IMG/VR virus record: IMGVR_UViG_3300049144_000095
Coordinates: 1-64,000 of that record
DNA from: a virus
Taxonomy: Duplodnaviria; Caudoviricetes
DNA length: 64,000 bases
Strand: one strand, 5' to 3'
This document shows, piece after piece, positions 11,651 to 59,828 of this stretch. A model generated the notes under the pieces. That model saw only the letters and a list, made by a program, of their open reading frames with translations. It was not told where the DNA came from and did no database searches. How positions within the stretch are numbered: the stretch's first letter is position 1; each line of letters opens with the position of its first letter. The translations under genes and the position numbers were made by a program.

Positions 11651-11668
11651 CGGCAAGGAGGGGGCGCC

Positions 11669-12139: not shown

Positions 12140-12160
12140 CACATACCGAATGGGGGGCTT

Positions 12161-12598
12161 GTGTCGAACCTGCCCAGATATCGAGTAGAACGCCCCGTCA
12201 CTGGTCGCATCGCAATCAGGATGCCGTACGCGCCGAACAACCGGGTCTGGCTGAAGGATGTCCTCGGCGAGCGCATACGACCTGACTGGGACAAGCAGAA
12301 TCGATGCTGGTGGGTGGCCCGCAACCACTTCGCCAAGGTCATCGAGGCGCTGCGTGACCGGCTCGGCCGGATCGACGTCTACGTGGACTGCCGGAACACC
12401 GAGCGTTGCGACACCCGCTGCAAGAACGCCCGCAGCCGTGAGTGCACCTGCCAGTGTCTCGGCAAGCATCACGGCCAGGGCATCACCTACGGCTGGAAGG
12501 TGGTCGGTGACACCACCGAGGTCCGCTCGGCCGGTATCGTGCGGCGCCACTTCGTCGTAGTTCGGGAAAGGGGAGAAACGCATGAGCAGCAACGGTGA
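12161..12598 (+). CDS. Hypothetical protein with Cys-rich Zn-binding motif
   Basis: CDTRCKNARSRECTCQCLGKHHG. Confidence 0.65.
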   Translation: MSNLPRYRVERPVTGRIAIRMPYAPNNRVWLKDVLGERIRPDWDKQNRCWWVARNHFAKVIEALRDRLGRIDVYVDCRNTERCDTRCKNARSRECTCQCLGKHHGQGITYGWKVVGDTTEVRSAGIVRRHFVVVRERGETHEQQR

Positions 12599-12767
12599 GT
12601 CGGCCTACGAGGCACACGTCCTCGCGACGGAGGACTGCTTCGAGAGGGCAGGCGATCGAGACACCGTCAATCCGGCCGTGGAGATCGGTCAGGGCATCAT
12701 CTCCGCCCTGCTGGCTATCGCCGCTGCCGTCCGTGAAGGTAACTCCGGACGCGGTGGCCAGACGTGA
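12582..12767 (+). CDS. Hypothetical protein
   Basis: RBS GGGGAG; coupled to both neighbours. Confidence 0.55.
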   Translation: MSSNGESAYEAHVLATEDCFERAGDRDTVNPAVEIGQGIISALLAIAAAVREGNSGRGGQT

Positions 12768-13387
12768 AGGCCACGAACCTGACCAACGAGCAGATCAAGG
12801 AACTGCGCGAACGGGCGCGACGTGAAGCCGGACCGTTCGTCAACCCGGCTATCGCGACGGGCTTCACGTCACACAACCCCGAGTGGGCTGCCGAGATCCT
12901 GGGAGAACGAAATTCCGCCATGGGCCTGACATGGCCGGAGGTCTACCTCCTCCACATCGCCAAGCAGGCCGAACCCAATCCACCCCCGCCCCCGCTGGCC
13001 ACTGCCCGACACCTGGCGTACGAGCAGGAGGAGCAGAAGCGCTGGGAAGTTGAACGCGAGAGGCAGCGACGGAGGTTCGACGAGTGGCTGGAGCTGAAAG
13101 CCGCTCTGCACAGGGCGGGCACCGAGGTCACGGTGCGGCACAACTACACCTCGCACCGGCACCTGGACGGGTACACCCAGGGCGGCGACCACATCTACCT
13201 GCTCAAGCCGCTCGACTTCGGCCGCCTGCACCGGGATGCAGAGATCGTTCTGTGCTGGACGCCGAGCCGGGCGAAGGATCTCGACCACTTCCCGGTCGAG
13301 GGTGAGTACGACGACCGGGTGCCCACTTGTAAGGCGTGCCTGAAGACGGCGCGGTCCATTGCGAACCGCCTGCCCGCCGAGGCCTGA
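12764..13387 (+). CDS. Hypothetical protein
   Basis: GTGA coupling; C-terminal PTCKAC. Confidence 0.65.
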   Translation: MKATNLTNEQIKELRERARREAGPFVNPAIATGFTSHNPEWAAEILGERNSAMGLTWPEVYLLHIAKQAEPNPPPPPLATARHLAYEQEEQKRWEVERERQRRRFDEWLELKAALHRAGTEVTVRHNYTSHRHLDGYTQGGDHIYLLKPLDFGRLHRDAEIVLCWTPSRAKDLDHFPVEGEYDDRVPTCKACLKTARSIANRLPAEA

Positions 13388-13417
13388 CGCGAGAACACCG
13401 GAAAGGACAGAAGAAAC

Positions 13418-13936
13418 GTGACGAAAGATCTCTACCAGGACGGCCTCTTTCAGCCCGACGAAGGTGAGTTCACCCGGCTTCCGCAGCGAGTCAGAACCCT
13501 TTGGAGGATCCAGACGGCCACCTCGGCCGTAATCTACGCAGCCGCCGCCGGTGTCGTCCTCGGGCTGCTCATGCCCCGGCTGTTCAACTGGAGCTGGGCC
13601 TGGTCACTGCTCGCCCTCTGCTTCCCCCTCCAGACGGCCTGGATCTGGTCCCGACTGAAGAAGCGCTGGGAGTTCACCGGTTACCGCCTGGACCAGGATG
13701 AGGTGCATTTTCGGTACGGCCTCATGCGCCGCAAGCTGGAAGGCTTCCCCTACGGTCGCATTCAGCTCGTCGAGGTCTCCTCTGGATTCTGGGCCCGTCG
13801 CCTCGGTCTGGCCTACGTCAGCATCTCCATCGGTGCACGCGCACGGTCCGGCATCGGGCCGGTCTCGGCCGAGGAGGCATCCCGACTCCGCGCGGAGCTG
13901 ATGGAACTTACCCGGGCAAAGGCGGTCGAACTGTGA
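13418..13936 (+). CDS. YdbS-like membrane protein with bacterial PH (bPH_2) domain
   Basis: Two TM helices then RWEFTGYRLDQDEVHFRYGLMRRKLEGFPYGRIQLVEVSSGFWARRLGLAYV. Confidence 0.85.
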   Translation: MTKDLYQDGLFQPDEGEFTRLPQRVRTLWRIQTATSAVIYAAAAGVVLGLLMPRLFNWSWAWSLLALCFPLQTAWIWSRLKKRWEFTGYRLDQDEVHFRYGLMRRKLEGFPYGRIQLVEVSSGFWARRLGLAYVSISIGARARSGIGPVSAEEASRLRAELMELTRAKAVEL

Positions 13937-15267
13937 GCAGTGTGATCGAGTCCGGGCGCCTCCATCCCATCACCGCCATTCGGCAGGCCTGGTTGCAGCT
14001 CAGCGTCTTCGTGTGGCTCGCCTGGGATCACCGCGACATCTTCGACGATGTGACCGACAAGTTCGGCGTCCGAGGTCCAGTCGCCTCAGTCCTCACCTTC
14101 GTTGCCCTGGTCAGCCTCATCGTGTACGTCTCCTGGCGCAAGACCGCTTTCACCATGACCTCGGCGTACCTGGACTACCACTACGGGTTGATGCGGCAGG
14201 TGCACCGCCGTATCAACGTTGACCAGATCCGCACCGTGGACGTCGAGCACCCCTTGTTCGGGCGCCCCTTCGGCGTGCGAGCCCTGGTCTTCTCCACGGC
14301 GGCCGGACCGACGAAGCTGGCCTACCTGGGGCCGCATGCGGCGGCAAAGCTACACGACGCCGTGGTGACTCAGACCGGTGCGACGTCCACAAGGGCGAGT
14401 AGTGAAGGCGTCGTCGCGCGCGTCACCGCCACTCGTCTCGCCCTGTCGATCCTGCTGGATGTCGAGGAGCTGCTGGGTCTCATCATCGGCGGCGCGATGA
14501 GCTTCATTCCGTTCATCGTCTCCGGGCATGTGTTCACTCTGGGGCTTGCGCTGCCCTGGCTGAGGACGACCTGGAGGGCGACGGGCAAGAAGTTCCCGAA
14601 GTATCACGGCTGGACCGTGCGTGAAGTGGCGGCGGGCTACCGGGTTGAATACGGGCTGTTCAACAAGGAGCAGTTCACCTGGCAGCGCGACCGGATCTGC
14701 TCCATCACCCTGCATCAGCCCCTGCTGTGGCGCTCACGGGACTGGGTGAAGGTCACCGGCGGATTCGTCGGCAGGGAAGGCGGTGACGGTAACGGCCCGG
14801 AGGACCCTGACGGACTCCTGCTCATCCCCGTGACAACGCGAGCGCAAGCCGAGAAGATGCTGGTCCGCATCTACGGACCCGAGGTTCTGAAGTTGATCGA
14901 CGAACCAGTCCGGGCGCCACGACGAGCCCGTTGGTGCACCCTGTGGCGGCGCGGCTGCGCGCTCAGCCATTCGCGGGACTTCGTGATCGGCTGGAGGGGG
15001 CTGTTCCTGAAGCAGACCGCCACGATCGCCCCCCTGGCTCGGGTGCTGGGCGTGAACGTCCTCCAGGGGCCCTGGCAGCGGGTGCACCAGCTCGCCCACG
15101 TCCGCCTGAGCCTCCCGGGCGGCGACGATGTTCTGGCGGCCCATCGTGACATCCATGAGGCCGCCAGGGTGGCAAGCATGATCCGTGCCTCCACGGTGAA
15201 CAGCGTCCTGACCGGCACTCCGATCGCTCGCCGGTTTGTCGAGAAGATCATCAAGGAGAGCCGGTGA
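13933..15267 (+). CDS. YdbT-like membrane protein with three bPH_2 repeats
   Basis: N-terminal RLHPIT; repeats INVDQIRTVDVEHPLFGRPFGV, RDRICSITLHQPLLWR, LARVLGVNVLQGPWQR. Confidence 0.85.
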   Translation: MSSVIESGRLHPITAIRQAWLQLSVFVWLAWDHRDIFDDVTDKFGVRGPVASVLTFVALVSLIVYVSWRKTAFTMTSAYLDYHYGLMRQVHRRINVDQIRTVDVEHPLFGRPFGVRALVFSTAAGPTKLAYLGPHAAAKLHDAVVTQTGATSTRASSEGVVARVTATRLALSILLDVEELLGLIIGGAMSFIPFIVSGHVFTLGLALPWLRTTWRATGKKFPKYHGWTVREVAAGYRVEYGLFNKEQFTWQRDRICSITLHQPLLWRSRDWVKVTGGFVGREGGDGNGPEDPDGLLLIPVTTRAQAEKMLVRIYGPEVLKLIDEPVRAPRRARWCTLWRRGCALSHSRDFVIGWRGLFLKQTATIAPLARVLGVNVLQGPWQRVHQLAHVRLSLPGGDDVLAAHRDIHEAARVASMIRASTVNSVLTGTPIARRFVEKIIKESR

Positions 15268-19037: not shown

Positions 19038-19260
19038 GACCGGAGACCCCGGGCCGGTGGGGGGCGTGGACCGCAACGATGAGACCGAGGATTTCGGCCA
19101 CAGGCCTGTTGTCAGTTTCATCGACGGACGCGCCCTCAATCGGGTGTGCGCCCGCTGTACTACCCATACGGCTACTGGCATCTGGGGAGTCCGATGGCCC
19201 TGCACCAGCGCCATCATCCTCGGACTTGTCCCACGACCGGTCAGCGGATCACTTCGGTGA
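19027..19260 (+). CDS. Hypothetical protein
   Basis: VCARC...WPC motif; overlaps upstream stop. Confidence 0.5.
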   Translation: MNPETGDPGPVGGVDRNDETEDFGHRPVVSFIDGRALNRVCARCTTHTATGIWGVRWPCTSAIILGLVPRPVSGSLR

Positions 19261-20140
19261 CCGGCCCGTAGGCCACATCGAGGTCGAACCACACATGGTC
19301 GCGGATACCAGCCCGCTGGTTGAAATCCTCGGCCCGCATCGCCAGCAACTGCTCGGCCCGCTCCTCCACCGTTCCGGTCAGCTCGGTTCCGTGGCGGTGC
19401 GGGCCGTTGTTGTATCCGTCCCGGACGGTGTTGCCGTTGCAGGCCCCGCCTTCGCAGCCAGCACCGATGAACCCGGCATGGTAGGCCCGGCCCACCTCGG
19501 GGAAGACCGTGAGGCGGTCCATCCTGTGCCGCACTCGGCCCATGGCGCCGTCGATTCCGCTCCACAGGTGAGGTGCACAGGGGTGGTCGGGGAACGTCCG
19601 GCGAAGGTGCTCCATCCGGTCGTCCAGGTATGACATCGGAAGGTAGTCCAGCACCTCCCGCAGTCGTTCAGGCCGGAAGCTCGTCCCGACCGTTGGCGCA
19701 AAGGGCCGCAGGGTGGCCTGGTGGGCACTCTGCGGGGTCGGCGCTGGTGCACCCACGTCCGGCTTGCAGGCGGTCACGCAGAAGGCTTCAGGGGCCAGTT
19801 GGTGGGCGCTGCGGTGGTAGGTGAAGTAGTCGACGCAGGTGAAGATGTCGTCCTCGATCATGTGGATCAAGTCAGCGTCGTATTCCATGGACTCGTGCAG
19901 GGCCTGGAGCATGTTCCGTGTCGGCCCCTGATCGGTACACGGCTCCCGGTGGACGACGTCCACTCGCTTCGATCCCACGTTCCAGGCGAACCGGCTGATG
20001 ACCTCGGGAACCAGTGGATCGGGATCGTGGTCGACGTTGATCCGGTAGCGGAGCCCATACTCGTCCGCCTTGGCCAGGCGCATGAGGGTGGCCAGCAGGA
20101 AGTCAGGCCTGCGCCACGCGACAACGTTGACGATCTCCAT
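19241..20140 (-). CDS. GT-A fold glycosyltransferase (paralog of 47353-48201)
   Basis: AWRRPD, HMIEDD metal-binding motif, RAYHAGFIG. Confidence 0.8.
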   Translation of the reverse strand: MEIVNVVAWRRPDFLLATLMRLAKADEYGLRYRINVDHDPDPLVPEVISRFAWNVGSKRVDVVHREPCTDQGPTRNMLQALHESMEYDADLIHMIEDDIFTCVDYFTYHRSAHQLAPEAFCVTACKPDVGAPAPTPQSAHQATLRPFAPTVGTSFRPERLREVLDYLPMSYLDDRMEHLRRTFPDHPCAPHLWSGIDGAMGRVRHRMDRLTVFPEVGRAYHAGFIGAGCEGGACNGNTVRDGYNNGPHRHGTELTGTVEERAEQLLAMRAEDFNQRAGIRDHVWFDLDVAYGPVTEVIR

Positions 20141-21048: not shown

Positions 21049-21771
21049 ATGAACGACATTGCCGTGCTCATACCTTTCGGCAACGGAACTCCGTGGCGCA
21101 GGAAGGCTCTTGACTACACGCGATCCTGGTACGCCGAGAACCTGGAAGGTGCCAGGATCCTCATGGGTCACAGCTCAGGCGCCTGGTGCAAGGCCGATGC
21201 GGTCGCGAACGCCCTGTCCCGCTCCTCCGGGGAAGAGATTCTTCTGATCGCCGACGCGGACTCGGTCACGCCCGGGGTGAAGCAGGCGGTGCGCGCCGTG
21301 CAGGACGGGGCGGCGTGGGCCGTTCCCCACCTGAAGGTCTACCGGATGAGCCAGGAGGCCACCACGGAGATCTATCAGGGGGCGGCACCCGGCTCGCTGA
21401 CGGGTCAGAACCGGTGGCTGGACCAGAGTCCGTACAAGGGGTACGAGGGTGGCGGCATCACGGTCCTGCGGCGCGAGGTGTACCTCGACTGCCCGCTCGA
21501 CCCGGCCTTCCGGGGGTGGGGCCAGGAAGACGAAGCGTGGGCCATGGCCCTCAACGGCCTGTACGGGCCCCCCTGGCGGGGCAAGGCACCGCTCTACCAC
21601 CTCTGGCACGAGAAGCCGGTACGTCTCACCCGGTACGCCGGGTCCGCCGCCTCTCTGGCCAGGCTCCAGGAGTACCGGGAAACACGTATACACGGCACCT
21701 GGAAAGAGCTTCTGGGGGAGGCAAGAACCACTGCCGAGGGAGGAGGCAATCCGTGTAAGGTTGCGATATGA
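21049..21771 (+). CDS. GT-A glycosyltransferase (GT2/GT7 C-terminal-like)
   Basis: IAVLIPF, KADAVANA, IADAD (DxD), FRGWGQED, LYHLWH. Confidence 0.85.
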   Translation: MNDIAVLIPFGNGTPWRRKALDYTRSWYAENLEGARILMGHSSGAWCKADAVANALSRSSGEEILLIADADSVTPGVKQAVRAVQDGAAWAVPHLKVYRMSQEATTEIYQGAAPGSLTGQNRWLDQSPYKGYEGGGITVLRREVYLDCPLDPAFRGWGQEDEAWAMALNGLYGPPWRGKAPLYHLWHEKPVRLTRYAGSAASLARLQEYRETRIHGTWKELLGEARTTAEGGGNPCKVAI

Positions 21772-31167: not shown

Positions 31168-31728
31168 ATGGATGCTCACGCGCGCAAGGACGCTGACGGC
31201 TACTTCCTGAACGCCATGGACCCCGGGGGAAGTACCGGACTATCCCTCTTCCACGTGAAGCCCGACGGCTTCCGCCTCCTGGAGTACGTCACCGTGCCCT
31301 GGGATCCACGCAGTGGCCTCAACCCGACCACCACGCTGGTCCAGTGGCGCCTGGAGTACCCCGGAATCCACCACCTTCTCTACGAGGACTTCCACATCCG
31401 GAACACCGAGAACGCAGCGGCCACCGATCCCACCGCTTTCCTGGTCATCGGTGCCGTCGAGCAGGTGATGTTCGACCGTGGGCACACCATGTACGAGCAG
31501 GTCTTCACGCAGGAGCCTGTCGCGGGCAAACGGATGGGCACCGACGAAGTCCTGGAGAAACTAGGTCTCCACATGGACCACCGCCATGCTCAGCGCCACG
31601 TAAGGGACGCGAACCGGCACGTGGTGACTCATCTGGTGAGCCGCCGGTACCTGCCGGTGTGCCAGGTCGCCTTCCCCAGAAGGTCCGTCAGGACCCGTCA
31701 AGCAATACTCCCTCATTCGCACCTGTGA
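31168..31728 (+). CDS. RuvC-like Holliday junction resolvase
   Basis: AMDPGGSTGLS, LLYEDF, HVRDANRH; TAAAAT 7 nt before ATG (leaderless). Confidence 0.8.
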   Translation: MDAHARKDADGYFLNAMDPGGSTGLSLFHVKPDGFRLLEYVTVPWDPRSGLNPTTTLVQWRLEYPGIHHLLYEDFHIRNTENAAATDPTAFLVIGAVEQVMFDRGHTMYEQVFTQEPVAGKRMGTDEVLEKLGLHMDHRHAQRHVRDANRHVVTHLVSRRYLPVCQVAFPRRSVRTRQAILPHSHL

Positions 31729-32170
31729 GCCTGTTCCACTCCAGCCAGCTCAGCACTTCTACGGTGCCCACGTTGATCGTGGCTGTCATCGAGCTGGACT
31801 CTCCGCCCTCGTCCGGGTTCAGAGCCCCTGTGCCGCTCTCCGTCTGAGCGCCCCAGGCGTAGACGGTCACTGTGTTGCCGGGATCCAGGTGACCCCACCT
31901 GTTCACCGTGAGAGTCGCCCGGAGCGGAGCGGGGGTCGTCTCGTGGAACTGGCTGATGTAGATGAGGCTGCTCACACCGGTCGCGGTCTGCACCAGGTCG
32001 CGCTGGACTCCGTCGATTTCGAGAGAGACGGAGAAAGGCCCCTCCGGGCGCTTCTGGGCGAAGGTGAAGTAGAGCCGGATGCCGCCCAGCGTATCCATGC
32101 CGTCGGGAGCGGGGACGTCGAAGTCGAAAGTGGCGGAAGCGCCGTCCGGGGGGATCTGGACAGTGGTCAT
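31688..32170 (-). CDS. Beta-rich protein, last gene of tail operon (probably virion)
   Basis: Coupled to upstream gene; ends LLDGS. Confidence 0.6.
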   Translation of the reverse strand: MTTVQIPPDGASATFDFDVPAPDGMDTLGGIRLYFTFAQKRPEGPFSVSLEIDGVQRDLVQTATGVSSLIYISQFHETTPAPLRATLTVNRWGHLDPGNTVTVYAWGAQTESGTGALNPDEGGESSSMTATINVGTVEVLSWLEWNRLTGANEGVLLDGS

Positions 32171-43673: not shown

Positions 43674-44240
43674 TCAGCTACCGGTGCTGCCGACCTGAAC
43701 CAGGCCCTCGGAGGACTGGCCCTGCGGGTAGAAGGTCGGCTGAAGCTGAAGCGGAGCGGTGGCGTCGTTGACGACGTTCGGGTCACCCGAGAGGAACTTG
43801 AAGATCGTGACCCAGTCGTTGTTGGCCGCCTGCGGATCCCTCACCGGGTGCTTCGAAATCCGCTGTACGAGGTAGCCCGACCGCAGGGGCTTCTTGAACA
43901 GCCTCATCACGTCGTTGTAGATCGACGGGTCGAGCTTGTTCGGGTCGCGGTCCAGGAAGACGCTGAGCTGTCCCTCGTAGTTCTTGGCGGTCGGTGTCGC
44001 CACGTTCGAGTCGTCGCAGAGACCTCGGGTGTCATCCGTGTCGCGGTCCGTCCAGCCGAGCGTGATGTCGGTGGTCAGTGCGCACGAAATGTTCAGCCCG
44101 GCGTTGATCTCTGCGGCGGTCGGGTGGTCGAGGTCCGCAAACCCCTGACCGTACGTGCCTTCGTAACCCTCGGACGTCTGGTCCGACTCGTCCACCCACC
44201 AGATGGTAAGACTCGGTGGTAGACTTTTGACTGCTGCCAT
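43674..44240 (-). CDS. Major tail (tube) protein
   Basis: PTAAEINAGLNISCALT...GLCD...GYLVQR...WVTIF; strong codon bias; ends GSTGS. Confidence 0.85.
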   Translation of the reverse strand: MAAVKSLPPSLTIWWVDESDQTSEGYEGTYGQGFADLDHPTAAEINAGLNISCALTTDITLGWTDRDTDDTRGLCDDSNVATPTAKNYEGQLSVFLDRDPNKLDPSIYNDVMRLFKKPLRSGYLVQRISKHPVRDPQAANNDWVTIFKFLSGDPNVVNDATAPLQLQPTFYPQGQSSEGLVQVGSTGS

Positions 44241-44297
44241 ATCGGTGTTTCCCTCCGGCCGGAAGGTGTGATCCTTCAGCCGGATCATAATGGGAAA

Positions 44298-44338
44298 GAC
44301 CCCCATTTGAGTGAGTGCCAGCCACTCAAATGGGGGTC
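44298..44338 (-). terminator. 16-bp hairpin terminator downstream of HNH gene
   Basis: GACCCCCATTTGAGTG/CACTCAAATGGGGGTC, then TTT on - strand. Confidence 0.75.
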
Positions 44339-44366: not shown

Positions 44367-45392
44367 TCAATTCCGTGTCTGGGTATGGCTATTCATCCAG
44401 CGGATGATTTCCTCTCGAATGAAGAGAGATGGCTTGCCGACCCTGACTGGCCGAGGGAAGTCGGCCTTGCGCTTCCTGTAGGTCGGCAGGTAGGTACGTT
44501 CGATGCCGAGGATGTCGGCAACCTCGCCTGACGTGATGCAGCCCTCGCGCTTCACCCCAGGCGCTACCTCGACAGCCTCTCCTCCAGCACGTCTTGCATA
44601 GTTCCTCGCCGACTTTGCGTTCACGCAGATCCGGCACCGACGAACGTAGGAGACTTTGCCGTTCCGGGTGCGCTTCTCCAGGATGAGGTTGTCACCTTCG
44701 AGCTTGTGTCCGTCATCGCATCCATCGCGCTCGGCCTGATACTGACCCCGGCCTCGCACCCCCGTCTTTGGCTTATACGCCTCACGTCGGGCCGCCTTTA
44801 CCTCAGGACGTGCGTGGTACTCGCGGTTGTACGTCTGGCTGTAGGCTCGCTCGCAGGTCAAGCAGGTTCGCCATCCACTTTCACCGATCCGCGTGTTTTC
44901 TGGCGCGAACGCGTGACCTCTGTCGCAGTGCGTCTTCCGAGCGTTCTGAGCGGTGGGGCTGACGCCGCGCAGTGTGTTGACCTTCTGTGAAACTTGCTCC
45001 AGGTGCTCATGGTTCACACAGGGGCGAAACCGGCACAGGTGGTCGGTCTCGCGCTCAGGGTCTCGATCTCGACCGCCGACGATGACCCAGGCGTAGAGGT
45101 GCCCGAAGGCTGACCCGCCTTCAGTTTTCGACCAATCAGATCGGAACTGACTGTACCCCCAAGGGTTAAGCCCTCCGCCCCAGATGACGCAGTCCGGCTT
45201 GGCTCCGAAGATTCGCTGAACTTCCTTCGAGGGGTTCTTCAGAGTGTAGTAGTCGAACCGGGCAGCATCGCCAACTATGCGACTGCGCGGGATTCGGACG
45301 AGCTTTTTCCAGGCTACGAGATGGGCGGTGCACATTCCCCACGAAGAGGCGGCGTAAGCGCAATCACCCACCCAGCACGTCATGTTGGGCAT
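44367..45392 (-). CDS. Free-standing HNH homing endonuclease with Zn-finger repeats and C-terminal HTH
   Basis: CVIWGG..N.WGY, HLYAW, DHLCRFRPCVNHEHL..VSQKVN; THCDRGH..CLTC, CDDGH..CRIC; AlpA-like ITSGEVADILGI..FPRP. Confidence 0.9.
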   Translation of the reverse strand: MPNMTCWVGDCAYAASSWGMCTAHLVAWKKLVRIPRSRIVGDAARFDYYTLKNPSKEVQRIFGAKPDCVIWGGGLNPWGYSQFRSDWSKTEGGSAFGHLYAWVIVGGRDRDPERETDHLCRFRPCVNHEHLEQVSQKVNTLRGVSPTAQNARKTHCDRGHAFAPENTRIGESGWRTCLTCERAYSQTYNREYHARPEVKAARREAYKPKTGVRGRGQYQAERDGCDDGHKLEGDNLILEKRTRNGKVSYVRRCRICVNAKSARNYARRAGGEAVEVAPGVKREGCITSGEVADILGIERTYLPTYRKRKADFPRPVRVGKPSLFIREEIIRWMNSHTQTRN

Positions 45393-45417
45393 TTCCTCCC
45401 CCTTTCCATGAGTTTCG

Positions 45418-45447
45418 ACGCTAATGGAGAGGGGTGCCATAAGTCAA
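45418..45447 (-). promoter_or_regulatory. HrdB-type promoter TTGACT-N18-TAGCGT for the HNH gene
   Basis: Near-consensus hexamers 26 nt upstream of the ATG. Confidence 0.7.
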
Positions 45448-45502: not shown

Positions 45503-45985
45503 TCACGATCCGACGTCGCTGAACTTGCTCACGTTCACCACACCCTTGTAGCCGACGGCGAGATAGAACCGCAGGGTGTCCCCGATGCCGACGGGATACG
45601 GGTCGCGCACAGTGCCGGATCCCGCCTCCGACAGCTCACCCTGGTCGAGCGGAGCGTAGCCGTGAAGCAGGTCGCGGACCGCCTGGGAGAGCTGAAGGAG
45701 AGCCAGTCCCGAGGGGGCGACCGCCTGCACGATGAAGGCCGCCTGCTTCGTGGTCTCACCGTCTCCCGCCAGCCCGCAGAGGTCGGCAACGGTGATGCGC
45801 CCGCCGAACCCCGAAAGGTCAAATGCCTGGCCGAACCAGAGGATGACTGTCGGCTTGTACAGACCAGAGGGGTCCGGAGTGATCTCGTTGCTCTCGCCGA
45901 TACCTTCGAGGTAGACGGGGGTGTTCGGCAGTCCGAGGTCCACCCGGCGGTAGATGTCGAGTTGCCAGTCCAGAAGGGAGACCAC
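45503..45985 (-). CDS. Tail terminator protein
   Basis: Position before tail tube; beta-rich; ends DVGS. Confidence 0.7.
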   Translation of the reverse strand: MVSLLDWQLDIYRRVDLGLPNTPVYLEGIGESNEITPDPSGLYKPTVILWFGQAFDLSGFGGRITVADLCGLAGDGETTKQAAFIVQAVAPSGLALLQLSQAVRDLLHGYAPLDQGELSEAGSGTVRDPYPVGIGDTLRFYLAVGYKGVVNVSKFSDVGS

Positions 45986-45986
45986 C

Positions 45987-46349
45987 TCAGGCCTCCTTGC
46001 CTATGAGGTCCGCCAGAGCCTGCGGCCAGGACGTGAAACGCACCGCCCGATCGTCGAGGTAGCTCGTCGCGGGAAGCTTCCGGTTGGTCACCAGCAGAAC
46101 GCCCCGCTGGTTCCAGAAGTCCCAGACGTAGCTCGGGGGCCCGTCAACGGTCACATGGAAGCCGTGCTCCCTCAGCCAGGAAGCCACCTGCCACTTGTCG
46201 CGGCTGGTGAGGATGAACACGGCCTCCTCGATCATCAGCGACTTCAGTCCTTCGAGGGCACCCTCCACTGGTTCGTCGTAGATGGAGCCGTCGTGCCAGC
46301 CGCGTGAGTAGCGGTGCACGACCCCGTCGAAGTCCACTGCGATCGTCAT
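45987..46349 (-). CDS. Capless HAD-family phosphatase
   Basis: IAVDFDGVVH (I), ILTSR (II), K, YLDDRA (IV); ATGA coupling. Confidence 0.85.
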   Translation of the reverse strand: MTIAVDFDGVVHRYSRGWHDGSIYDEPVEGALEGLKSLMIEEAVFILTSRDKWQVASWLREHGFHVTVDGPPSYVWDFWNQRGVLLVTNRKLPATSYLDDRAVRFTSWPQALADLIGKEA

Positions 46350-46930
46350 GCTGCACTCCGTTCGCCGTGCGGTACGCGTGCCAGTTCGCGCATCCGGACC
46401 AGCCGCTTGTCGCTGACGCCGAAAGGGCGGTAGTGCAGACACCGAGCACAGCGCCCGCAGTCGCTGTTCGCCAGGACGGGGTGCTCGCACGTGCAGGCTG
46501 CGTGAGCCCTCTCGATCGCCGAGCAGTCTCCGTGGAACAGGCCCGCCTCTCCGCGCCACCACGGCCCGCGTGACCCGTGCCAGGAGTGCGAGACGTTCAC
46601 GGGGTCGCCCTTGCGGTCGCGCCCCTGGCACCAGGCGCACCGGGTCAGCAGGCGGCGCCGCAGAAGCTGGAGGGGGCGGATCTGGATACGCCAGTGGTGG
46701 AGGTGCAGTTTCCATCGCTTGCCCCGGCAGGTGACGTCGTCATGGCCCGAAGGGTCCCGGTGCCACACCGTGATCATGCCGGGCCAGTACAGGCCTCTCC
46801 CGGCCACGGTCCAGTAGGCACCTCTGAAGTCCCACCGGATGCCCTGCTTCAGGGCCACGCCGGTCTTCCAGGCGCTGCGACGGGGCCAGGGACGGGGGAT
46901 CTCCACCACCACGGTAAGGGGATCGTGCAT
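46346..46930 (-). CDS. Hypothetical Trp/Cys/His-rich protein
   Basis: TVWHRDPSGHD, HLHHWRIQ, RCAWC, CARC. Confidence 0.65.
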   Translation of the reverse strand: MHDPLTVVVEIPRPWPRRSAWKTGVALKQGIRWDFRGAYWTVAGRGLYWPGMITVWHRDPSGHDDVTCRGKRWKLHLHHWRIQIRPLQLLRRRLLTRCAWCQGRDRKGDPVNVSHSWHGSRGPWWRGEAGLFHGDCSAIERAHAACTCEHPVLANSDCGRCARCLHYRPFGVSDKRLVRMRELARVPHGERSAA

Positions 46931-47343
46931 CAGCGGCCCCCCAGGCGTGCGGAGAGTTCCGCCGTCACGGAGTTGAAGGCGTCGAACACGGCCATCATGG
47001 GCGTGATGCCGGTCCTGGTGCCGAACTCCTGGAACGGGGCGTAGAAGGGGTTCCCGTACTCCCAGCCGAAGGAGATCTTCAGGATGTCCGTACCGAAGTC
47101 TCCGGTCCCGGTGACGGAAGCCTTCATCTGGCCGGTGTCGACACGGGACTTGGCGCGCACCATCCCCTCACCCCGCCGACGGGCATTCGACAGGTCGAGC
47201 ACCAGCCGCTGGCGCGACTTGTTCAAGTGGTCGACAACGAAAGCCGACAGGCCGATATCGAAAGCACCGCCAGGCGTGCCTCCGCCGTAGTACCGCTGCG
47301 CACCGCCGAACCGGTAGTTGTACTTGATGCCGATGTAGGCCAT
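46930..47343 (-). CDS. HK97 gp10-like neck/tail completion protein
   Basis: SRVDTGQMKASV...YAPFQEFGT..ITPM. Confidence 0.8.
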   Translation of the reverse strand: MAYIGIKYNYRFGGAQRYYGGGTPGGAFDIGLSAFVVDHLNKSRQRLVLDLSNARRRGEGMVRAKSRVDTGQMKASVTGTGDFGTDILKISFGWEYGNPFYAPFQEFGTRTGITPMMAVFDAFNSVTAELSARLGGR

Positions 47344-47352
47344 CCCAACCTC

Positions 47353-48201
47353 CTACGCCTGGAGAGCCGCGCCCAGGGCTTCCTCTTCCGGAGCGGTGGG
47401 CAGGTTTTCTTCGAGGTCTATCACCTCATGATCCTTCAGTTCTCCGGCGAGAGCGTTCATTTCTTCCGACCGCATCGCGAGGATGCGGGCCGAACGCTGC
47501 TCCACCGTGCCTTCCGTGAGCTGAGTCCCCGGCCTGTTGTACCCGTGGAACCCGGCGTGGAAGGCGCGCGGGCGCGTCGTGTAGACGGTCTTCGCTCCCA
47601 TGGATTCGCGAATGCGGTTGATCAGGCCGTCCTGTTCGGCATGGCCCGCCGGAATGATGCTTCCGGGGAACATCCGCTGGCAGTACCGGACCATGTCGCC
47701 GTAGTACCCGGGCCCGTCGTGCGCCGTGATCCTGTCGGCCACGTCACGGCGCATGGAAACCCCCAGCGACTGATACGAGGGGTGGAGGTAGGCGGCCTCG
47801 CTTCTCGGCCTGATCTGGTTCTGGTTGCGGCAGGCGCTCACCGCGAAAGCCGAGGGGGCTATCCGGTGCATGGCTTCGTGGTACCTGAAGTACCCCCGCG
47901 CGACCAGGACATCGTCCTCGACGATGTGGAGCAGAGACCAGGGCAGGCGCATGCAGTCGCGGATGCCGGACATGACGTTGTAGGAATTGCCCCGGTATGG
48001 GTGATCGTGCATTTCCCGGAGGTAGATGGACGTGAAGCGCCGGGAGAACTTCTCCGCGACAGTCCTGCATTCCGGGTCGTAGGAACGGTCGAGGCTCACC
48101 ACGACAGACACCCCGTCAGGAGCTGCCTGCTCAAGGCACGTCAAGCAGGCATGCAGCATGTCGGGCCTGCGCCAAGCGGGGATGAGAACGACATGCTTCA
48201 T
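47353..48201 (-). CDS. GT-A fold glycosyltransferase
   Basis: LIPAWRRPDML, HIVEDD, RAFHAGFHG; paralog of 19241-20140. Confidence 0.85.
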   Translation of the reverse strand: MKHVVLIPAWRRPDMLHACLTCLEQAAPDGVSVVVSLDRSYDPECRTVAEKFSRRFTSIYLREMHDHPYRGNSYNVMSGIRDCMRLPWSLLHIVEDDVLVARGYFRYHEAMHRIAPSAFAVSACRNQNQIRPRSEAAYLHPSYQSLGVSMRRDVADRITAHDGPGYYGDMVRYCQRMFPGSIIPAGHAEQDGLINRIRESMGAKTVYTTRPRAFHAGFHGYNRPGTQLTEGTVEQRSARILAMRSEEMNALAGELKDHEVIDLEENLPTAPEEEALGAALQA

Positions 48202-48202
48202 G

Positions 48203-48553
48203 TCAGTCCACCTTCGGTAGGGCGTGGAACGAGCCGTCTGCCGCGAAGACGGCCTTGATGTCAGCCAGTGGCACGTCGGTCAGCGATAGCCAGCAATCCC
48301 GGCACGGGGTGCCGTCCTCTGGCACAGGTTTGCCGCAATATCGGCACGGGGTGCCAGGTTCCTCCACGGGGCGGCCGCACGGGCTGGCATGGTCCGGATG
48401 ATCGGGGAAGCGGCACTCCTCGCGCCCGCCGGAAGCGCACGACCGGCACACGCCCGGGGTAATCCGGTCCAGCCAGGCCGGATGGAACACCTCGCCACAG
48501 AAGGAGCACGAGAACGGCACCCCGTGGCCAGTTCCAGGTCGGGTCATGGGCAC
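48203..48553 (-). CDS. Small Cys-rich Zn-binding protein
   Basis: CSFC, CRSC, C..H.H..C, CRYC, CRDC; coupled between two GT genes. Confidence 0.55.
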   Translation of the reverse strand: MPMTRPGTGHGVPFSCSFCGEVFHPAWLDRITPGVCRSCASGGREECRFPDHPDHASPCGRPVEEPGTPCRYCGKPVPEDGTPCRDCWLSLTDVPLADIKAVFAADGSFHALPKVD

Positions 48554-49449
48554 TGCACCAGCTTCAGGGCCACGTTACGAAACTCGGCGTTCCGCTTCAG
48601 CAGATGCTCCCTGGCGGCTTGGCCGACCTCACGCCTCCGGTGGGGAGTCAGTGCCGCCGCACGCTGCACCGCATCGATGATCAGCCCGGGGTCCGTGTAG
48701 GTCTGAAGGGCCTGGTGATGGCTTCGGGTTTTCGTCACTCCGAGCAGATAGCCCCACTCCGGCCGGATGTGCTCGTTCATCGGCGAGGCATCCGTTGTGA
48801 TCACAACTGCTCCGACGGACATGGCCTCGGTGATGTAGTGCCCCCAGCCTTCAGCGACTGAGGGGCAAAGGTGGATCTCGTGTTCGTTCATCAGGCGGTC
48901 CAGCTCCCGCCCGGTAGGCGAGATGACGACAGAGATGTGATCCGGTACGCGAACCGGCTCCTTCGAGACGATGGTCAACGGCGGGAGATCCGGATTCCGG
49001 CGCCACGCCTCGACCACTTCTTCGGTGCCCTTCATCTGCGACTTCCCGCGTACGTGAAGGCACTTCAGTTCCCTTGGAACCGCTGGGTCCATCCGGTCGC
49101 AGCCGAGGAACCCCGTGAGGCGCACGTCGCGGGCTCCCCGCTGACGGCAGAACTGTGCAGCGTATGAACTCTTCGCCCATATCTGGTCAAAGGCGGGCAA
49201 GTACTTCAGCCACTCGGTGGGGTACCACTCCAGGTTCAGCACGGCAATGTTCCGGTCGGCGCACTTGGCCAGGTTCCGGCTGACAAGCTCCAGGTGAAAG
49301 GCGACATCGGCGTGGTCCATCACGTCCGACTGCCAGTCCTCGAAGGAGACTTCATGTCCCGCCGACGTGAAAAGGTCCGTCAGCAGCTTCGCATCCAGTG
49401 ACAGGCCGACACCGTTATCCCGGCTGATGAGGGCAATTTTCAGCCCCAC
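48544..49449 (-). CDS. GT-B (GT4-like) glycosyltransferase
   Basis: LHVRGKSQMKGT; IHLCPSVAEGWGHYITEAMSVGAVVITTD (EX7E). Confidence 0.9.
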   Translation of the reverse strand: MGLKIALISRDNGVGLSLDAKLLTDLFTSAGHEVSFEDWQSDVMDHADVAFHLELVSRNLAKCADRNIAVLNLEWYPTEWLKYLPAFDQIWAKSSYAAQFCRQRGARDVRLTGFLGCDRMDPAVPRELKCLHVRGKSQMKGTEEVVEAWRRNPDLPPLTIVSKEPVRVPDHISVVISPTGRELDRLMNEHEIHLCPSVAEGWGHYITEAMSVGAVVITTDASPMNEHIRPEWGYLLGVTKTRSHHQALQTYTDPGLIIDAVQRAAALTPHRRREVGQAAREHLLKRNAEFRNVALKLVQCP

Positions 49450-49468: not shown

Positions 49469-50038
49469 TCAGGGTCCCGTGACCTCGGGATTCCAGACAA
49501 TCGGCTGCATCGAATACGGCTCTGGCAAAGTCTGCGGATGGCCCGCGTCCACGTCGCACAGGAGATTCCGCAGCCATGCGTTCGAGGACATCAGCGGGTT
49601 GCGCACATGAAGAAGATAGTGGCCAAGTTCTGGATCGCCCATGACAAGGTGACCGAGATCGGGGTCGTCCGGGTCCGGGGTGAAAGGCCTGACCAGGTCA
49701 TTGGCATGGATGGGCGGGCACTCGCGGATGGGCGTCTGAACCCGGATAGCGTGATCGGTGCCCATGTCGCCGCGCTGGGTCCTGACGCGCGCACGCCAGT
49801 CCTTGTTGTTCGCCAGCCGGGCTCGGCCCCGGTACAGGAGGACCAGCTCTGGATACTTCTCGCCGCCTTGCCCGTCCGGAATCGTCAGGCCGCCGGTGAC
49901 GGGATCAAAACCGTACTCATTACCTCGACTTGGTCTGCGGAATATCTCCACGGCGGCGTTCATGTGCCCGCGAGGAACCGACCGCTGATGCCATGCCCAG
50001 CGTGGATCCAGGGCCGTCCGCCTGTTGAGTGCAGCCAT
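49469..50038 (-). CDS. Head-to-tail stopper (DUF6093-like)
   Basis: LLYRGRARL...IRVQTP..CPPIHANDLV; after adaptor. Confidence 0.7.
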   Translation of the reverse strand: MAALNRRTALDPRWAWHQRSVPRGHMNAAVEIFRRPSRGNEYGFDPVTGGLTIPDGQGGEKYPELVLLYRGRARLANNKDWRARVRTQRGDMGTDHAIRVQTPIRECPPIHANDLVRPFTPDPDDPDLGHLVMGDPELGHYLLHVRNPLMSSNAWLRNLLCDVDAGHPQTLPEPYSMQPIVWNPEVTGP

Positions 50039-50092
50039 GCACCCATTCTGCACGCAGATCTGGACAGAGATTGCTGTGGATTTCGATTCGGT

Positions 50093-55123: not shown

Positions 55124-56440
55124 TCAGGAGCCCGCCGGGCCCGAGACCTTCGGGCCGCTGGTGATCGAGGCCATCCGGACCGAGTTGTCCTGACCCGTAC
55201 CCAGCGACACCGCCACCGCCGACGCGTCGATACCGGCGGCGCCGATGATCGAACGCACGCGGTACTGGATGTCGTCGTGGCTGAACGAACCCTCGAAGGC
55301 GCTGATGTCGCCGCCGCCGAGCGCACGGCCCGTGTCGCCCATGACCCGCACCTCGGGGGTCTCGTGACCACGCAGGAACGCCGTCACGATCGCCGGACCA
55401 CGGTCGGTCTGGCCACCGGCCGGAACCAGGTACCAGGTCGTCGCGGCGTTGACCGAGTTGTCGATGAGCGGCAGCCAGGGGCTCTCGACCACCGTGAAGC
55501 GACCGGCGATCGGCGAAGAGACGTTCTGGCGGATCTCGGAACCGTCGGCCGCCGTGCGCACCCGCAGGTACGTGGTGCCCTGCGCGATCTCCTGCGCGGT
55601 GAGCGCGAGGGACGGCGGAACGAGCAGCACGAAGTTCTGCACGCGGACCTGTCGGCCCGCGACGGTGCGCATGCCGATGTAGTTGATCGCGTGCTCCAGC
55701 GCGTCGAGCGTCAGAGCGGGGTTGCCGGGGACGAAGTTGCCCTCGGGGGCGTGGCCGCCGAAGTCCTCGGTCGTGTTGAAGAAGTCGGGGTTCGGGCCGC
55801 TGGACGTGGCGAGGACACCCGTGGTCAGGACGTCCTCGGTGTCGCGGGCCCACCGCGCCATCTCCGTCGGGAGCTGCGAGAGGACCCGCAGCTCGTCGTT
55901 CATGAAGGCTTCCCACGAGAAGGGGAACCGGGCGCCGTACTTGTTGACGAAGTAGTCCGAACCCTCGGTGGTGAGGTTGAAGGTCGGGTACTCCGTCAGC
56001 TCCGGGATGCGGGGCAGGGCCCGGACGTGGCGCTCGGCGCCGCCGTTGTAGTCGGTCGTCTGCGACTGACCGGCGACCGCGTCCCAGCGGACCATGCGTG
56101 CGGGCCGGAAGTCGGGCACCGTGGTGCGCACGGAGAACGTCGGCCACTGCTGCGGCAGCTCGGCGTACTGACCGAGCATCGACGCCTGGCTGATCGACTG
56201 GAACAGCAGGGGGAAGTCGCCGGACGAGACGGCTTCACGCAGTCGGCCCATCGCGACCGGGGAACCGGTCTCGGCCTCACGCTTGAGGCGCAGGAACTCG
56301 ACGGCACGGGCCATCTTCACCAGACGGGCGTCGGCGCTCTCGCGGAGTGCGGCGCGGCGTCGACCGTGAGCCTCGGCGATCCGAGCGAACTCAGGGTTCG
56401 TGGTCGCCTTGATTCCGTCGAGGAGGTTCAGGGCAGTCAT
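55124..56440 (-). CDS. Major capsid protein (HK97 fold, Mu gpT-like)
   Basis: VPDFRP, PELTEY, VNKYGARFPFSWEAFMNDEL, LLVPPSL; extreme codon bias; ends GPAGS. Confidence 0.92.
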   Translation of the reverse strand: MTALNLLDGIKATTNPEFARIAEAHGRRRAALRESADARLVKMARAVEFLRLKREAETGSPVAMGRLREAVSSGDFPLLFQSISQASMLGQYAELPQQWPTFSVRTTVPDFRPARMVRWDAVAGQSQTTDYNGGAERHVRALPRIPELTEYPTFNLTTEGSDYFVNKYGARFPFSWEAFMNDELRVLSQLPTEMARWARDTEDVLTTGVLATSSGPNPDFFNTTEDFGGHAPEGNFVPGNPALTLDALEHAINYIGMRTVAGRQVRVQNFVLLVPPSLALTAQEIAQGTTYLRVRTAADGSEIRQNVSSPIAGRFTVVESPWLPLIDNSVNAATTWYLVPAGGQTDRGPAIVTAFLRGHETPEVRVMGDTGRALGGGDISAFEGSFSHDDIQYRVRSIIGAAGIDASAVAVSLGTGQDNSVRMASITSGPKVSGPAGS

Positions 56441-56457: not shown

Positions 56458-56943
56458 TCAGGATCCGGAAGCGGTCTTGTCGGGGACCGCGTTGGTGTCG
56501 CCCGGGGTGGGCTGGACCACCTTGACGATCGGAACGCCGTCGGTCGTCTGGCCGACGATCGTGCCGAAGGGGTCCGAGTTCGACGCGGTGGTCAGAGTGG
56601 CGCGGGTGTTGCCCGAGGCCGCCACGATGAACACGGGGGTGCCGCTGCCCTTGGTGGTGGGGTCCCAGCCGGTGACCGGGAAGGCGAAGCAGCCTTCCAG
56701 GGCGACCGAGGCCCAGCCGGGCGCGAGCGAGTTCGCCGGGTTGCGGGTCTGGGTGACCGTGGTGTCGCCGATGGTGTAGGAGACGGACTTGCCGCCGACC
56801 TCCTGCGCGAAGCCGACGATCGAGCCGATCTTCACCGGGTCACCGGCGAGGGTCGGGTCGTCGTTCTTGTGCGGGTCGTTGCCCCGCAGCGGCAGCGGGA
56901 GGGAGACCCACTGGCCGTACTTGAAGATCTCGTTCTTGGCCAT
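56458..56943 (-). CDS. Capsid decoration protein (DUF2190-like)
   Basis: AGDPVKIGSIVGFA...SVALEGCFAFP; ends TASGS. Confidence 0.75.
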   Translation of the reverse strand: MAKNEIFKYGQWVSLPLPLRGNDPHKNDDPTLAGDPVKIGSIVGFAQEVGGKSVSYTIGDTTVTQTRNPANSLAPGWASVALEGCFAFPVTGWDPTTKGSGTPVFIVAASGNTRATLTTASNSDPFGTIVGQTTDGVPIVKVVQPTPGDTNAVPDKTASGS

Positions 56944-58097: not shown

Positions 58098-59828
58098 TTA
58101 ACTTCCTTCGTCTCGCAGTTCGTGGTCTGCGTAGGACATGGGGTCCGGCTGCTTCGGGGCCGCAGTTGCACGCGAGTTTCCCGCCTTGAGCGGGGATGGT
58201 GCACCGGGTCCACCCGTGCCAGCGGGAGGAGTATTCCTCGAATTACTGCCTGATTGATCGGAGTTTGGCTTCGAATCAACCTTGGGGATTCCCTGGCCTG
58301 TTCCTCCCGCCACATAGGGAAGCTGGTCGAGCGTCGGAGCCTTCCTGCCGAAATCCTTCCACTTGTCGTGGAAGGCGTCGAGGGCCATCGCCCTCGCCTC
58401 TTCCGCCGAGACGAGCCCCAGGCGGATCAACATGTCGAGAGCCTGCATGCGCCGGTGCACCGGCTCCTCGGAAATCTCCGGCCACCGCAGCCGGACCTTG
58501 AGACCCAGCACCTTGAAGATCTGACGGAACGTCTCGTCCATCACCTTCTGGCGGGACTGCATCACGAGAATCGTCGACTGGTCGAGCGACGTGGCGCCCG
58601 CATTGTTGGCGATCGACGGGTCCTCCAGAAGCGCAGGCAGGGGCACATCCAGAGCGGAGGCCACCATCGATGCCAGGGGTCGGCCCGATTCAAAGTCGAC
58701 CTTGGTGTTGCCGCCTACCGCCGACAGATCCTGCCCCGCTCCAAGGACTGCCGAGGCCCCCACGTTCAGAGGCTGCCCTGTCGCCGGATCCACGCGGGGG
58801 GCTTGCGCCATGGCGGCAGCCGTACGGCGGACCGACCGCGACTTGTCGGAGGTGACCTTCCAGGCGAAGCGTGCGTACGCCTTCGTCAGCGTCGCGCAGT
58901 TTTCCAGGAACTCCTTGTACGCCTTGGTCCACCAGACTGCCGGAAGCACGTCGGGGATGCCCCAGCGCCAGCCCGTCAGCCGGTTGAACGGAACGTGGAC
59001 CAGAACCTTCGAGTTGTCGACAGGGTCTCCCGCGATGGTCCCCGCCCCCCGGCCCCTGCCCATGGCCCTCAGTCCGGCGGGCGTCGGGTACCAGACGTCC
59101 CGGAATGAGAACTTGGCGGCCCCGCCCGAATCGCCTTCGCGGTCGGCGCGGATCCAGCTCCGGCCCCTGGCGACCGCTTTGGGTGCCGTGATGGGGTTCA
59201 GCTCGATGTCGGCGCCGAAGTCCAGTTCGAGATCCCAGTCGTTCCAGGTGCGGCGGATGTACATCAGGCGCTCCCTGTTGCCGCGCTGAGACACCCCTTC
59301 GGTTATCTCCTCGAAGGGGATTCGCTGCACCTCCTTGGATCGGCGGTCAACCAGAAAGAAGAGATTCCCGTCGGTTCCGGCGGTGCGTTCCAGTTCGAGC
59401 TGTGCCAGCGGACCTGTCAGAACTTCCGCGATTCCCTCGGGAAGTTCCGGCTCTACGTTCACAGTTCGTGGGCGGCCGGGCCCCTGGATGAATTCCTCGG
59501 GAACCACTGAAACGCCGGATCCCCAGATGTACCCGGTTCGTACTCGCAGGCCGCGACCCACGAGGGGATTGACGGTCGCCACGGCGCGGCACAGCTCGCT
59601 GGCGTTATGCAGAGCGTCCAGGGTGAAGGTGTTCGCCCCCTCGGTGGGGCCCATCAAAGGGCGCCACCCGATGTCTTCCAGGGCGAGTTGCACGCGGCCG
59701 AACTCGCCTGCCTCGCGCATCTCTTCCGTGACAAGTCCCGTAAGTTCCTCGTTGCGGGCTTCGAGATTCGCCACGAGCGTCTGGATTTCCGTCAGCGACA
59801 GCTCTTCGACGGGCCTCTTCATCTGCAT
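58098..59828 (-). CDS. Portal protein
   Basis: NPLVGRGL....IWG, DGNLFF, RWGIPDVLPAVWW; between TerL and protease; ends DEGS. Confidence 0.88.
   Translation of the reverse strand: MQMKRPVEELSLTEIQTLVANLEARNEELTGLVTEEMREAGEFGRVQLALEDIGWRPLMGPTEGANTFTLDALHNASELCRAVATVNPLVGRGLRVRTGYIWGSGVSVVPEEFIQGPGRPRTVNVEPELPEGIAEVLTGPLAQLELERTAGTDGNLFFLVDRRSKEVQRIPFEEITEGVSQRGNRERLMYIRRTWNDWDLELDFGADIELNPITAPKAVARGRSWIRADREGDSGGAAKFSFRDVWYPTPAGLRAMGRGRGAGTIAGDPVDNSKVLVHVPFNRLTGWRWGIPDVLPAVWWTKAYKEFLENCATLTKAYARFAWKVTSDKSRSVRRTAAAMAQAPRVDPATGQPLNVGASAVLGAGQDLSAVGGNTKVDFESGRPLASMVASALDVPLPALLEDPSIANNAGATSLDQSTILVMQSRQKVMDETFRQIFKVLGLKVRLRWPEISEEPVHRRMQALDMLIRLGLVSAEEARAMALDAFHDKWKDFGRKAPTLDQLPYVAGGTGQGIPKVDSKPNSDQSGSNSRNTPPAGTGGPGAPSPLKAGNSRATAAPKQPDPMSYADHELRDEGS

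Follow-up and report, generated by a model that had tools for sequence, protein, structure and literature searches.

The 64,000-nucleotide (nt) window analyzed here is the first 64 kb of the 251,159-bp IMG/VR virus record IMGVR_UViG_3300049144_000095, which is rated complete by CheckV and represents a Streptomyces-type phage from soil. Its neck operon contains two glycosyltransferase (GT) genes, one for a GT4-family (Glycos_transf_1) enzyme (48544–49449, minus strand) and one for a GT-A-fold enzyme of the GnT-I/POMGnT1/MGAT2-like type (47353–48201, minus strand), with a Cys-rich, zinc-ribbon-like open reading frame (ORF; 48203–48547, minus strand) between them. The conserved unit is the two-gene GT4/GT-A pair in the head-tail connector operon and not all three genes. 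By analogy with mycobacteriophages, we consider it fairly probable that the pair glycosylates the phage's own virion proteins. The observations underlying this interpretation are the gene anatomy, the families and folds of the enzymes, the conservation of the pair, the insertion of the Cys-rich ORF, and the enrichment and phyletic pattern of Ser-ending tails on virion proteins.

The GT-A protein has 282 amino acids (aa), and its gene starts 1 nt past the stop codon of the Cys-rich ORF. Against the Pfam family Glyco_tranf_2_3 it scored 18.6 bits, under the cut-off of 27. Structure prediction, which the earlier note had suggested as a check, confirmed the fold. The AlphaFold2 model, built from a 71-sequence alignment of the family, had a predicted local distance difference test score (pLDDT) of 95.1 and a predicted template modeling score (pTM) of 0.93. 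Foldseek returned at least 500 PDB matches at E <= 1e-3, and among the 50 listed, all were glycosyltransferases or glycosyltransferase-domain proteins. The top matches were GnT-I (1fo8/1foa), POMGnT1 (5ggf/5ggi), and MGAT2 (5vcm), with E values from 1.7e-11 to 1e-9. The same three enzymes were found when the profile of the 71-sequence family was compared with PDB sequences (human MGAT2, 1.2e-10; POMGNT1, 2.1e-9; GnT-I, 7e-6). The family profile was required for this, as a single-sequence phmmer search against PDB sequences yielded chance matches only, e.g., AcrF7 with an E value of 0.02.

The metal/nucleotide motif of the GT-A protein is V-E95-D96-D97-V, a DXD-type acidic motif located after the fourth beta-strand. 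D97 is invariant in the 71 sequences, and E95 is present in at least 90% of them. The EDD aligns with the E-E-D in the "LEED" stretch of MGAT2 and POMGnT1, and profile alignments revealed a "PRxxHxGxxG" stretch near the C-terminus that is common to GnT-I/POMGnT1/MGAT2 relatives. The phage protein itself is below the Pfam GNT-I and MGAT2 thresholds, and 4 and 6 of the 71 family members, respectively, match weakly (E <= 0.01). The family comprises 394 cluster representatives. Sequence and model together point specifically to the GnT-I/POMGnT1/MGAT2 group and not to a generic GT2 enzyme. They suggest a relationship to the GT13/GT16 GlcNAc (N-acetylglucosamine) transferases, in which membership is not established. 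The phage protein shares with the eukaryotic GT13/GT16 enzymes the GT-A fold, the acidic motif, the C-terminal stretch, and the top structural matches. It differs from them in sequence (12–18% identity, TM-score about 0.55) and in its minimal architecture, being a soluble protein of 282 aa that is devoid of a stem, a transmembrane segment, or a lectin domain.

The GT4-family protein has 301 aa and a GTG start codon, and a purine-rich Shine-Dalgarno-like run (GGGGGAAGGTGGGGGAA) is situated just upstream of the GTG. It exceeded the cut-offs of the Pfam families PF00534 (Glycos_transf_1; 32.1 bits, cut-off 26.4) and PF13692 (30.9 bits, cut-off 27), passed the PF00534 cut-off also in a search of its own genome, and matched phrog_2170. 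The EX7E motif reads E200-GWGHYIT-E208, with both Glu residues unchanged in all 39 sequences compared. The homologues number more than 414, and many of them are on phage contigs of 180–260 kb. Searches of PDB sequences with the single sequence and with the profile resulted in weak matches to the C-terminal domain only, and the best matches of the profile were WbaZ-like, PglJ-like, and GlgM-type enzymes. Judging from family membership, GT4 would adopt a GT-B fold, and we propose that it is a retaining enzyme and a candidate for the initiating transferase. A membrane-like hydrophobic segment was not detected by hydropathy in either GT4 or the GT-A protein; GT4 has no transmembrane-like stretch, with a maximal KD19 value of 0.95. 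The prediction of two glycosyltransferases in the earlier note was thus correct. Both are real and of different families, as seen from the Pfam matches of GT4 and from the model and Foldseek matches of the GT-A protein.

GnT-I, POMGnT1, and MGAT2 are glycoprotein beta-1,2-GlcNAc transferases that all extend mannose, and none of them acts directly on peptide. Therefore, the GT-A protein is the likelier extender and GT4 the likelier initiator, and we propose that the former is an inverting, glycan-extending enzyme. The division into an initiating and an extending enzyme that had been suggested before is plausible in view of these nearest relatives of the GT-A protein, whereas the order of action is only inferred.

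The genomic context supports the view that the two enzymes form a unit. The DNA of the neck region is about 72–74% identical to that of seven Streptomyces phages with genomes of 184–200 kb (JustBecause, Kela, Satis, Kradal, Quantum, EhyElimayoE, and Frankenweenie), which belong to cluster BK. JustBecause gp47/gp48 are an orthologous pair with 70% and 61–63% aa identity and the same neck-gene neighbors, and pairs of this type are present also in the other six phages. In the JustBecause group the two GT genes overlap by 4 nt and nothing is between them, whereas here they are separated by the 345-bp Cys-rich ORF. Twenty-two loci that carry both enzymes were compared, 16 BK-like and six of another lineage. 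The two genes abut in all 16 BK-like loci, typically with the 4-nt overlap. The other lineage consists of six distant, smaller phages (L011, L024–L028), the enzymes of which are 43–48% identical to those described here. In all six, an O-methyltransferase of about 187 aa is encoded between the two GT genes. In L011, one of these phages, the portal is of the SPP1 type and the capsid protein has 288 aa. More distant members of the GT-A family are present in larger phage glycan clusters together with GT2, GT4, and pyruvyl transferase genes (L036, 3033–6843; L037, 2372–10053), and the L036 cluster is placed between portal and capsid genes.

The late genes of the phage are on the minus strand. Terminase, portal, protease, a 161-aa head protein, and the capsid protein are encoded from 62.9 to 55.1 kb, followed by an opposite-strand island and then, between 50.7 and 31.7 kb, by the genes for neck and tail. 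GT4, the Cys-rich ORF, and GT-A are closely packed, with a DUF6093 neck gene on one side and an HK97-gp10-like gene on the other, and the spacers inside the neck operon are 1–19 nt long or replaced by overlaps. The three genes have in-frame GC contents at third codon positions of 0.78–0.83. Minus-strand terminator-like sites were absent from 42 to 51.9 kb. The scan also revealed no sigma-70-like promoter sites and no excess of terminator-like sites over the shuffled expectation, and it is informative for the absence of minus-strand terminators only. The tight packing of three ORFs within the neck genes, which had been noted before, was verified with respect to coordinates, strand, and common orientation. 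Both junctions of the Cys-rich ORF are bridged by letter-perfect contigs from three other soil-metagenome studies, and therefore, the gene arrangement is real and not an assembly artifact.

A link between the GT pair and the virion comes from the C-termini of the structural proteins. Five of them end in Gly-Ser. The major capsid protein (55124–56440, minus strand; Pfam Phage_capsid_4, 5.5e-32) ends in ...KVSGPAGS, the 161-aa decoration-like head protein (56458–56943, minus strand) in ...DKTASGS, and the tail tube protein (43674–44306, minus strand; Pfam Phage_TTP_16, 1.3e-27) in ...VQVGSTGS. These three are candidate substrates. The portal protein (58098–59828, minus strand) ends in ...ELRDEGS and the 160-aa protein at the neck/tail-terminator position (45503–45985, minus strand) in ...FSDVGS. 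A sixth gene of the structural strand with this ending (31688–32170, minus strand) encodes a 160-aa protein at the distal end of the tail genes, which ends in ...VLLDGS and has no Pfam match. In a crude gene call of the whole genome, Gly-Ser is the commonest C-terminal dipeptide (10 of 348 genes), and 6 of these 10 genes are among the 21 structural-strand genes (Fisher p = 4e-6). The ending is kept in JustBecause for four of the five proteins; the JustBecause portal ends in ...DESTS and the 160-aa homologue in ...GAGS. In the capsid protein, residues 397–438 (...AAGIDASAVAVSLGTGQDNSVRMASITSGPKVSGPAGS) form an Ala/Ser/Gly-rich tail that is about 20 aa longer than in homologues of phages in which no GT was found; the homologues compared are from Arthrobacter, Stenotrophomonas, and Microbacterium phages. 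Capsid alignments with homologues outside the BK-like group end at residue 396, and the last 14 residues diverge even among the related Streptomyces phages.

The tail tube ORF is listed with 210 aa, and the alignments with all relatives begin at residue 23 (MAAVKSLPP...). Translation probably starts in fact at position 44240 with an ATG, which would yield a protein of 188 aa, as in JustBecause gp51.

In the Arthrobacter phage Molivia, the module recurs with an unchanged gene order and comprises homologues of the adaptor, DUF6093, gp10-like, 160-aa, and tail-tube genes. Searches of the Molivia genome detected neither GT family, and the annotation of the 50 kb that were read contains no GT. Of the five Molivia proteins compared, the capsid protein alone ends in Gly-Ser (...STGS). 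The other endings are ...DTASA for gp29 (head), ...GKEQ for gp27 (portal), ...DVFVP for gp34 (160-aa homologue), and ...VA/...LL for the tail tube. In a survey of 54 tail-tube loci from IMG/VR, all 12 loci with an upstream GT pair encode tail-tube proteins ending in Ser, and for the 42 loci without the pair, 37 proteins end in A, V, L, T, or D.

A comparable modification is reportedly known from mycobacteriophages: Freeman et al. 2023 (Cell Host Microbe 31:1216) are said to have described virion O-glycosylation for Che8, Corndog, and Myrna, with glycans O-linked at the C-terminus. As far as passages in papers citing that work go, the phages' own glycosyltransferases modify capsid as well as tail-tube proteins of the Che8/Corndog type (PMC12363180, PMC11600133), and the genes or phages named in such passages are Che8 gp108-110, Corndog gp35-38, and Myrna (PMC11256854, PMC12363180, PMC11600133). 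In Corndog, an O-methyltransferase gene and three GT genes are inside the structural operon (PMC4351075). In the public records, the Che8 capsid protein ends in ...KTGS and a tail protein in ...SDGS; the corresponding Corndog endings are ...LVGS and ...KGDS. The phage described here resembles Che8 and Corndog in encoding soluble glycosyltransferases and an O-methyltransferase, and in having capsid and tail-tube proteins that end in Ser, mostly in Gly-Ser. As in Corndog, GT genes are embedded in the structural operon, although the position differs: between the DUF6093 and gp10-like genes here, between portal and protease in Corndog, and at the right genome end in Che8. Further differences are the enzyme families of the neck pair (GT4 plus GnT-I-like), the Streptomyces-type host, and the genome size of 251 kb. 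The Ser ending is found here on more proteins (portal, decoration-like, and neck protein). For the mycobacteriophages the glycan is reported as shown, whereas for this phage it is predicted.

The virion glycan that had been postulated for this locus fits the enrichment of Ser tags on virion proteins, the same endings in Che8 and Corndog, and the lack of most tags in Molivia. The glycan itself, and with it the substrate, the sequence in which the enzymes act, the sugars used, and the time of action, we infer as follows. GT4 and the GT-A protein would be soluble, cytoplasmic enzymes that are made together with the structural proteins. The exposed Ser-ending C-terminal tails (...GS) would be O-glycosylated before or during assembly, with the capsid, decoration-like, and tail-tube proteins and some neck/portal proteins as targets. 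The first, alpha-linked sugar would probably be transferred to Ser by GT4 and probably be extended by the GnT-I-like GT-A enzyme. Two further glycosyltransferases (19241–20140 and 21049–21771) and an O-methyltransferase (genome positions 65276–65830) would probably complete the glycan.

Several points weigh against glycosylation of the virion by the pair. To our knowledge, no glycan has been observed on this or any Streptomyces phage. For GT4 enzymes, lipid-linked or polysaccharide acceptors are the usual ones. Homology of the neck pair to Che8 gp109/gp110 or Corndog gp38 was not detectable (no blastp match with E < 0.5; hhalign probabilities, 0.6–3.5%), and therefore, it is analogy that connects the pair with the proven systems. 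The distant GT-A family member of L037 adjoins Tet/JBP and TAGT DNA-modification genes. The tail-tube survey spans about 5–6 independent clades, and five of its Ser-ending loci have no GT pair within 7–10 kb upstream; these five records are 5–42% complete fragments, and two of them carry a weak GT2-like ORF. Lastly, a Gly-Ser ending of the capsid protein was observed also where neither GT family was found, in Molivia and in the Stenotrophomonas phage Jojan60 (...GSGS). The capsid ending is therefore not GT-specific and carries little weight alone. It is partly true for the capsid that a C-terminal Gly-Ser is a universal feature of the protein family.

Modification of the host instead of the virion appears unlikely. 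The enzymes would then act on a cell-envelope glycopolymer or a lipid-linked glycan and thereby, for instance, prevent superinfection, conceal receptors, or promote release. The GT4 family is classically associated with cell-wall and lipid-linked glycan synthesis, several sources name its homologues "glycosyltransferase involved in cell wall biosynthesis", and the WbaZ-like, PglJ-like, and GlgM-type PDB matches of its profile would be in line with such a role, as would a relative that has UDP-Glc/GDP-Man dehydrogenase and aminotransferase genes beside the neck genes. However, neither enzyme has membrane segments, and Pfam and PHROG scans of the neighboring neck genes did not reveal a flippase, a GtrA-like protein, or a polyprenyl-phosphate transferase family. 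The genes belong to the late structural operon of a 251-kb genome and not to a lysogeny module, five virion proteins have Ser-ending tails that co-vary with the GT genes, and the closest relatives of the GT-A protein act on glycoproteins.

For the glycosylation of the virion itself, a more specific version can be formulated, to which we give only a small chance. The pair might build, on the particle, a eukaryote-like O-mannosyl glycan of the "core M1" type, with GT4 adding an alpha-hexose (mannose) to the C-terminal Ser and the POMGnT1/GnT-I-like enzyme adding a beta-1,2-GlcNAc, and the GT4/GT-A junction might repeatedly take up accessory genes by which the glycan or its targeting is adjusted (the O-methyltransferase in one lineage, the zinc-ribbon ORF here). 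If this were true, the GT-A family with its 394 cluster representatives would be a previously unrecognised viral/bacterial branch of GT13/GT16.

The Cys-rich ORF encodes a protein of 114 aa, and its ATG start codon overlaps the GT4 stop codon as ATGA. The protein contains the CxxC pairs C16/C19 with C36/C39 and C70/C73 with C84/C87, as well as C47/H52/H55/C59. Ten homologues with about 50% identity were found, in which the Cys/His columns are invariant; the invariant residues of the family are C39, C47, H55, C59, C70, C73, C84, and C87. The conservation of the CxxC pairs points to two or three zinc sites. All Pfam matches were below the cut-offs (DZR_2, 16 bits, cut-off 27; DZR, 13.9 bits, cut-off 27.3), the model, with a pLDDT of 70, had no Foldseek match with E < 1, and the Atlas scores for the ORF were < 0.9. 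A paralogue was not found in the 251-kb genome, nor a homologue among 50,697 phage records. The contexts of two homologues could be recovered; one is beside an integrase gene and a Cro-like helix-turn-helix gene, the other is in a phage-like contig without family matches, and no glycosyltransferase is near either of them. As far as these contexts show, the homologues reside in early regions of other phages.

A DNA alignment showed the Cys-rich ORF to be a clean insert of about 350 bp, placed precisely where the stop of GT4 and the start of GT-A meet. A co-occurring relative in the same soil sample (run X1), which is about 80% identical (depth 39 versus 190), skips this stretch, and the ORF is absent from all 22 compared loci with the GT pair (16 BK-like and 6 distant). 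Because of its insertion status, its absence from the 22 loci, and the homologues without a nearby GT, we read the ORF as a recently inserted, unrelated accessory gene in a permissive junction, outside the glycosylation machinery. The three-part cassette of the earlier note was thus not borne out. It is very improbable that the zinc protein is nevertheless an adaptor, chaperone, or regulator that directs both transferases. Such a role would agree with its location exactly at the junction and its translational coupling (the ATGA overlap and the 1-nt spacer to GT-A), with the occupation of the same slot by a functional partner, the O-methyltransferase, in another lineage, and with the unchanged genotype in four soil studies. 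It is opposed by the absence of the ORF from the 22 pair-carrying loci, the 50,697 phage records, and the co-occurring relative, by the two recovered homologue contexts, and by the lack of an informative fold or family match.

Least probable of all is that the enzymes glycosylate the phage DNA (hypermodified bases) before packaging and thus evade host restriction: DNA hypermodification is frequent in large phages, a single distant member of the GT-A family is beside Tet/JBP and TAGT genes, and late expression could coincide with packaging, but no ThyA-type deoxynucleoside monophosphate hydroxymethylase was found in the complete 251-kb genome by a search that matched control genomes, the GT-A protein resembles glycoprotein GlcNAc transferases and not the T4 or TAGT DNA glucosyltransferases, and the neck-gene position and the co-varying protein tails would be left unexplained. 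A search for Tet/JBP in the genome gave no match, and as it had no positive control, it counts for nothing.

Virion glycosylation by phage-encoded enzymes is a known kind of system, the GenBank relatives already have their orthologous genes annotated as glycosyltransferases, and the idea has already been raised for Streptomyces phages. New here are the GnT-I/POMGnT1-like identity of the GT-A protein, the finding that two lineages share a conserved GT4/(O-methyltransferase)/GT-A module, the comparison with Molivia as a control, and the demonstration that the zinc-finger ORF is an interloper. For practical purposes, the description of the glycosylation system should be corrected to exclude the Cys-rich ORF. 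Ser tails on up to five virion proteins, together with a conserved GT pair that has no detectable homology to the Che8 and Corndog enzymes and is present in large Streptomyces phages and in an unrelated lineage of smaller phages, point to a wider trait of actinobacteriophages with more than one enzyme set. Virion glycosylation, which alters the antibody recognition of phage particles, has so far been shown only for mycobacteriophages. The cultured relatives JustBecause and Satis offer a direct test bed.

Four GT genes are present in the window. The two outside the neck operon are in its replication-side part, and neither they nor their neighbors have a Pfam match. One (19241–20140, minus strand) encodes a second GnT-I-like member of the GT-A family with 299 aa, which is 32% identical to the neck copy (E = 7.6e-36 by tblastn against the phage's own genome); each BK-like phage record also contains two places that match this family. 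The other (21049–21771, plus strand) encodes a GT-A-like glycosyltransferase of 240 aa that is annotated as "glycosyltransferase" in all seven related phages. Its homology to Che8 gp109 and Corndog gp37 extends over the full length but is weak (blastp E values of 2.9e-8 and 1.2e-7 in a small search set). An O-methyltransferase gene (genome positions 65276–65830, minus strand) is located 1.3 kb past the window end. Its product shares 78% identity with JustBecause gp13 and about 30% with the methyltransferase that is encoded between GT4 and GT-A in the six distant phages, and it probably belongs to the same glycan pathway.

The genes that flank the three ORFs in the neck operon have recognizable families. 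The upstream DUF6093 gene (49469–50053, minus strand; Pfam DUF6093, 6.5e-17) is separated from GT4 by 19 nt and has, by synteny, a head-closure/stopper position. Its homologue is Molivia gp32, which directly precedes the gp10-like gene there, and the label "stopper" is a guess from gene order only. The downstream HK97-gp10-like/Neck1 (tail completion) gene (46930–47343, minus strand; phrog_5, 1.3e-5) follows GT-A after a 9-nt gap; its product is 88% identical to the JustBecause gp49 homologue and is homologous to Molivia gp33.

In comparison with the JustBecause group, the genome is about 65 kb larger, and the operon contains three additional inserts, all on the minus strand. One is a Cys/His-rich ORF of 194 aa (46346–46930), which is present but uncalled also in L010, the closest large relative, a 253-kb contig in a Streptomyces sp. 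assembly. The second (45987–46352) encodes a HAD-like protein of 121 aa with an "AVDFDG" motif that matches phrog_1238 and is below the cut-off of Pfam HAD_SAK_2. The third (44367–45440) encodes an HNH endonuclease of 357 aa with a C-terminal helix-turn-helix domain and is flanked by the 160-aa neck gene and by the gene for the tail tube. L010 itself carries genes for a UDP-glucose/GDP-mannose dehydrogenase, a 414-aa protein, and a class-III aminotransferase on the opposite strand between the neck and the downstream structural genes (10358–14375), and these genes look like a sugar-nucleotide supply beside the GT pair.

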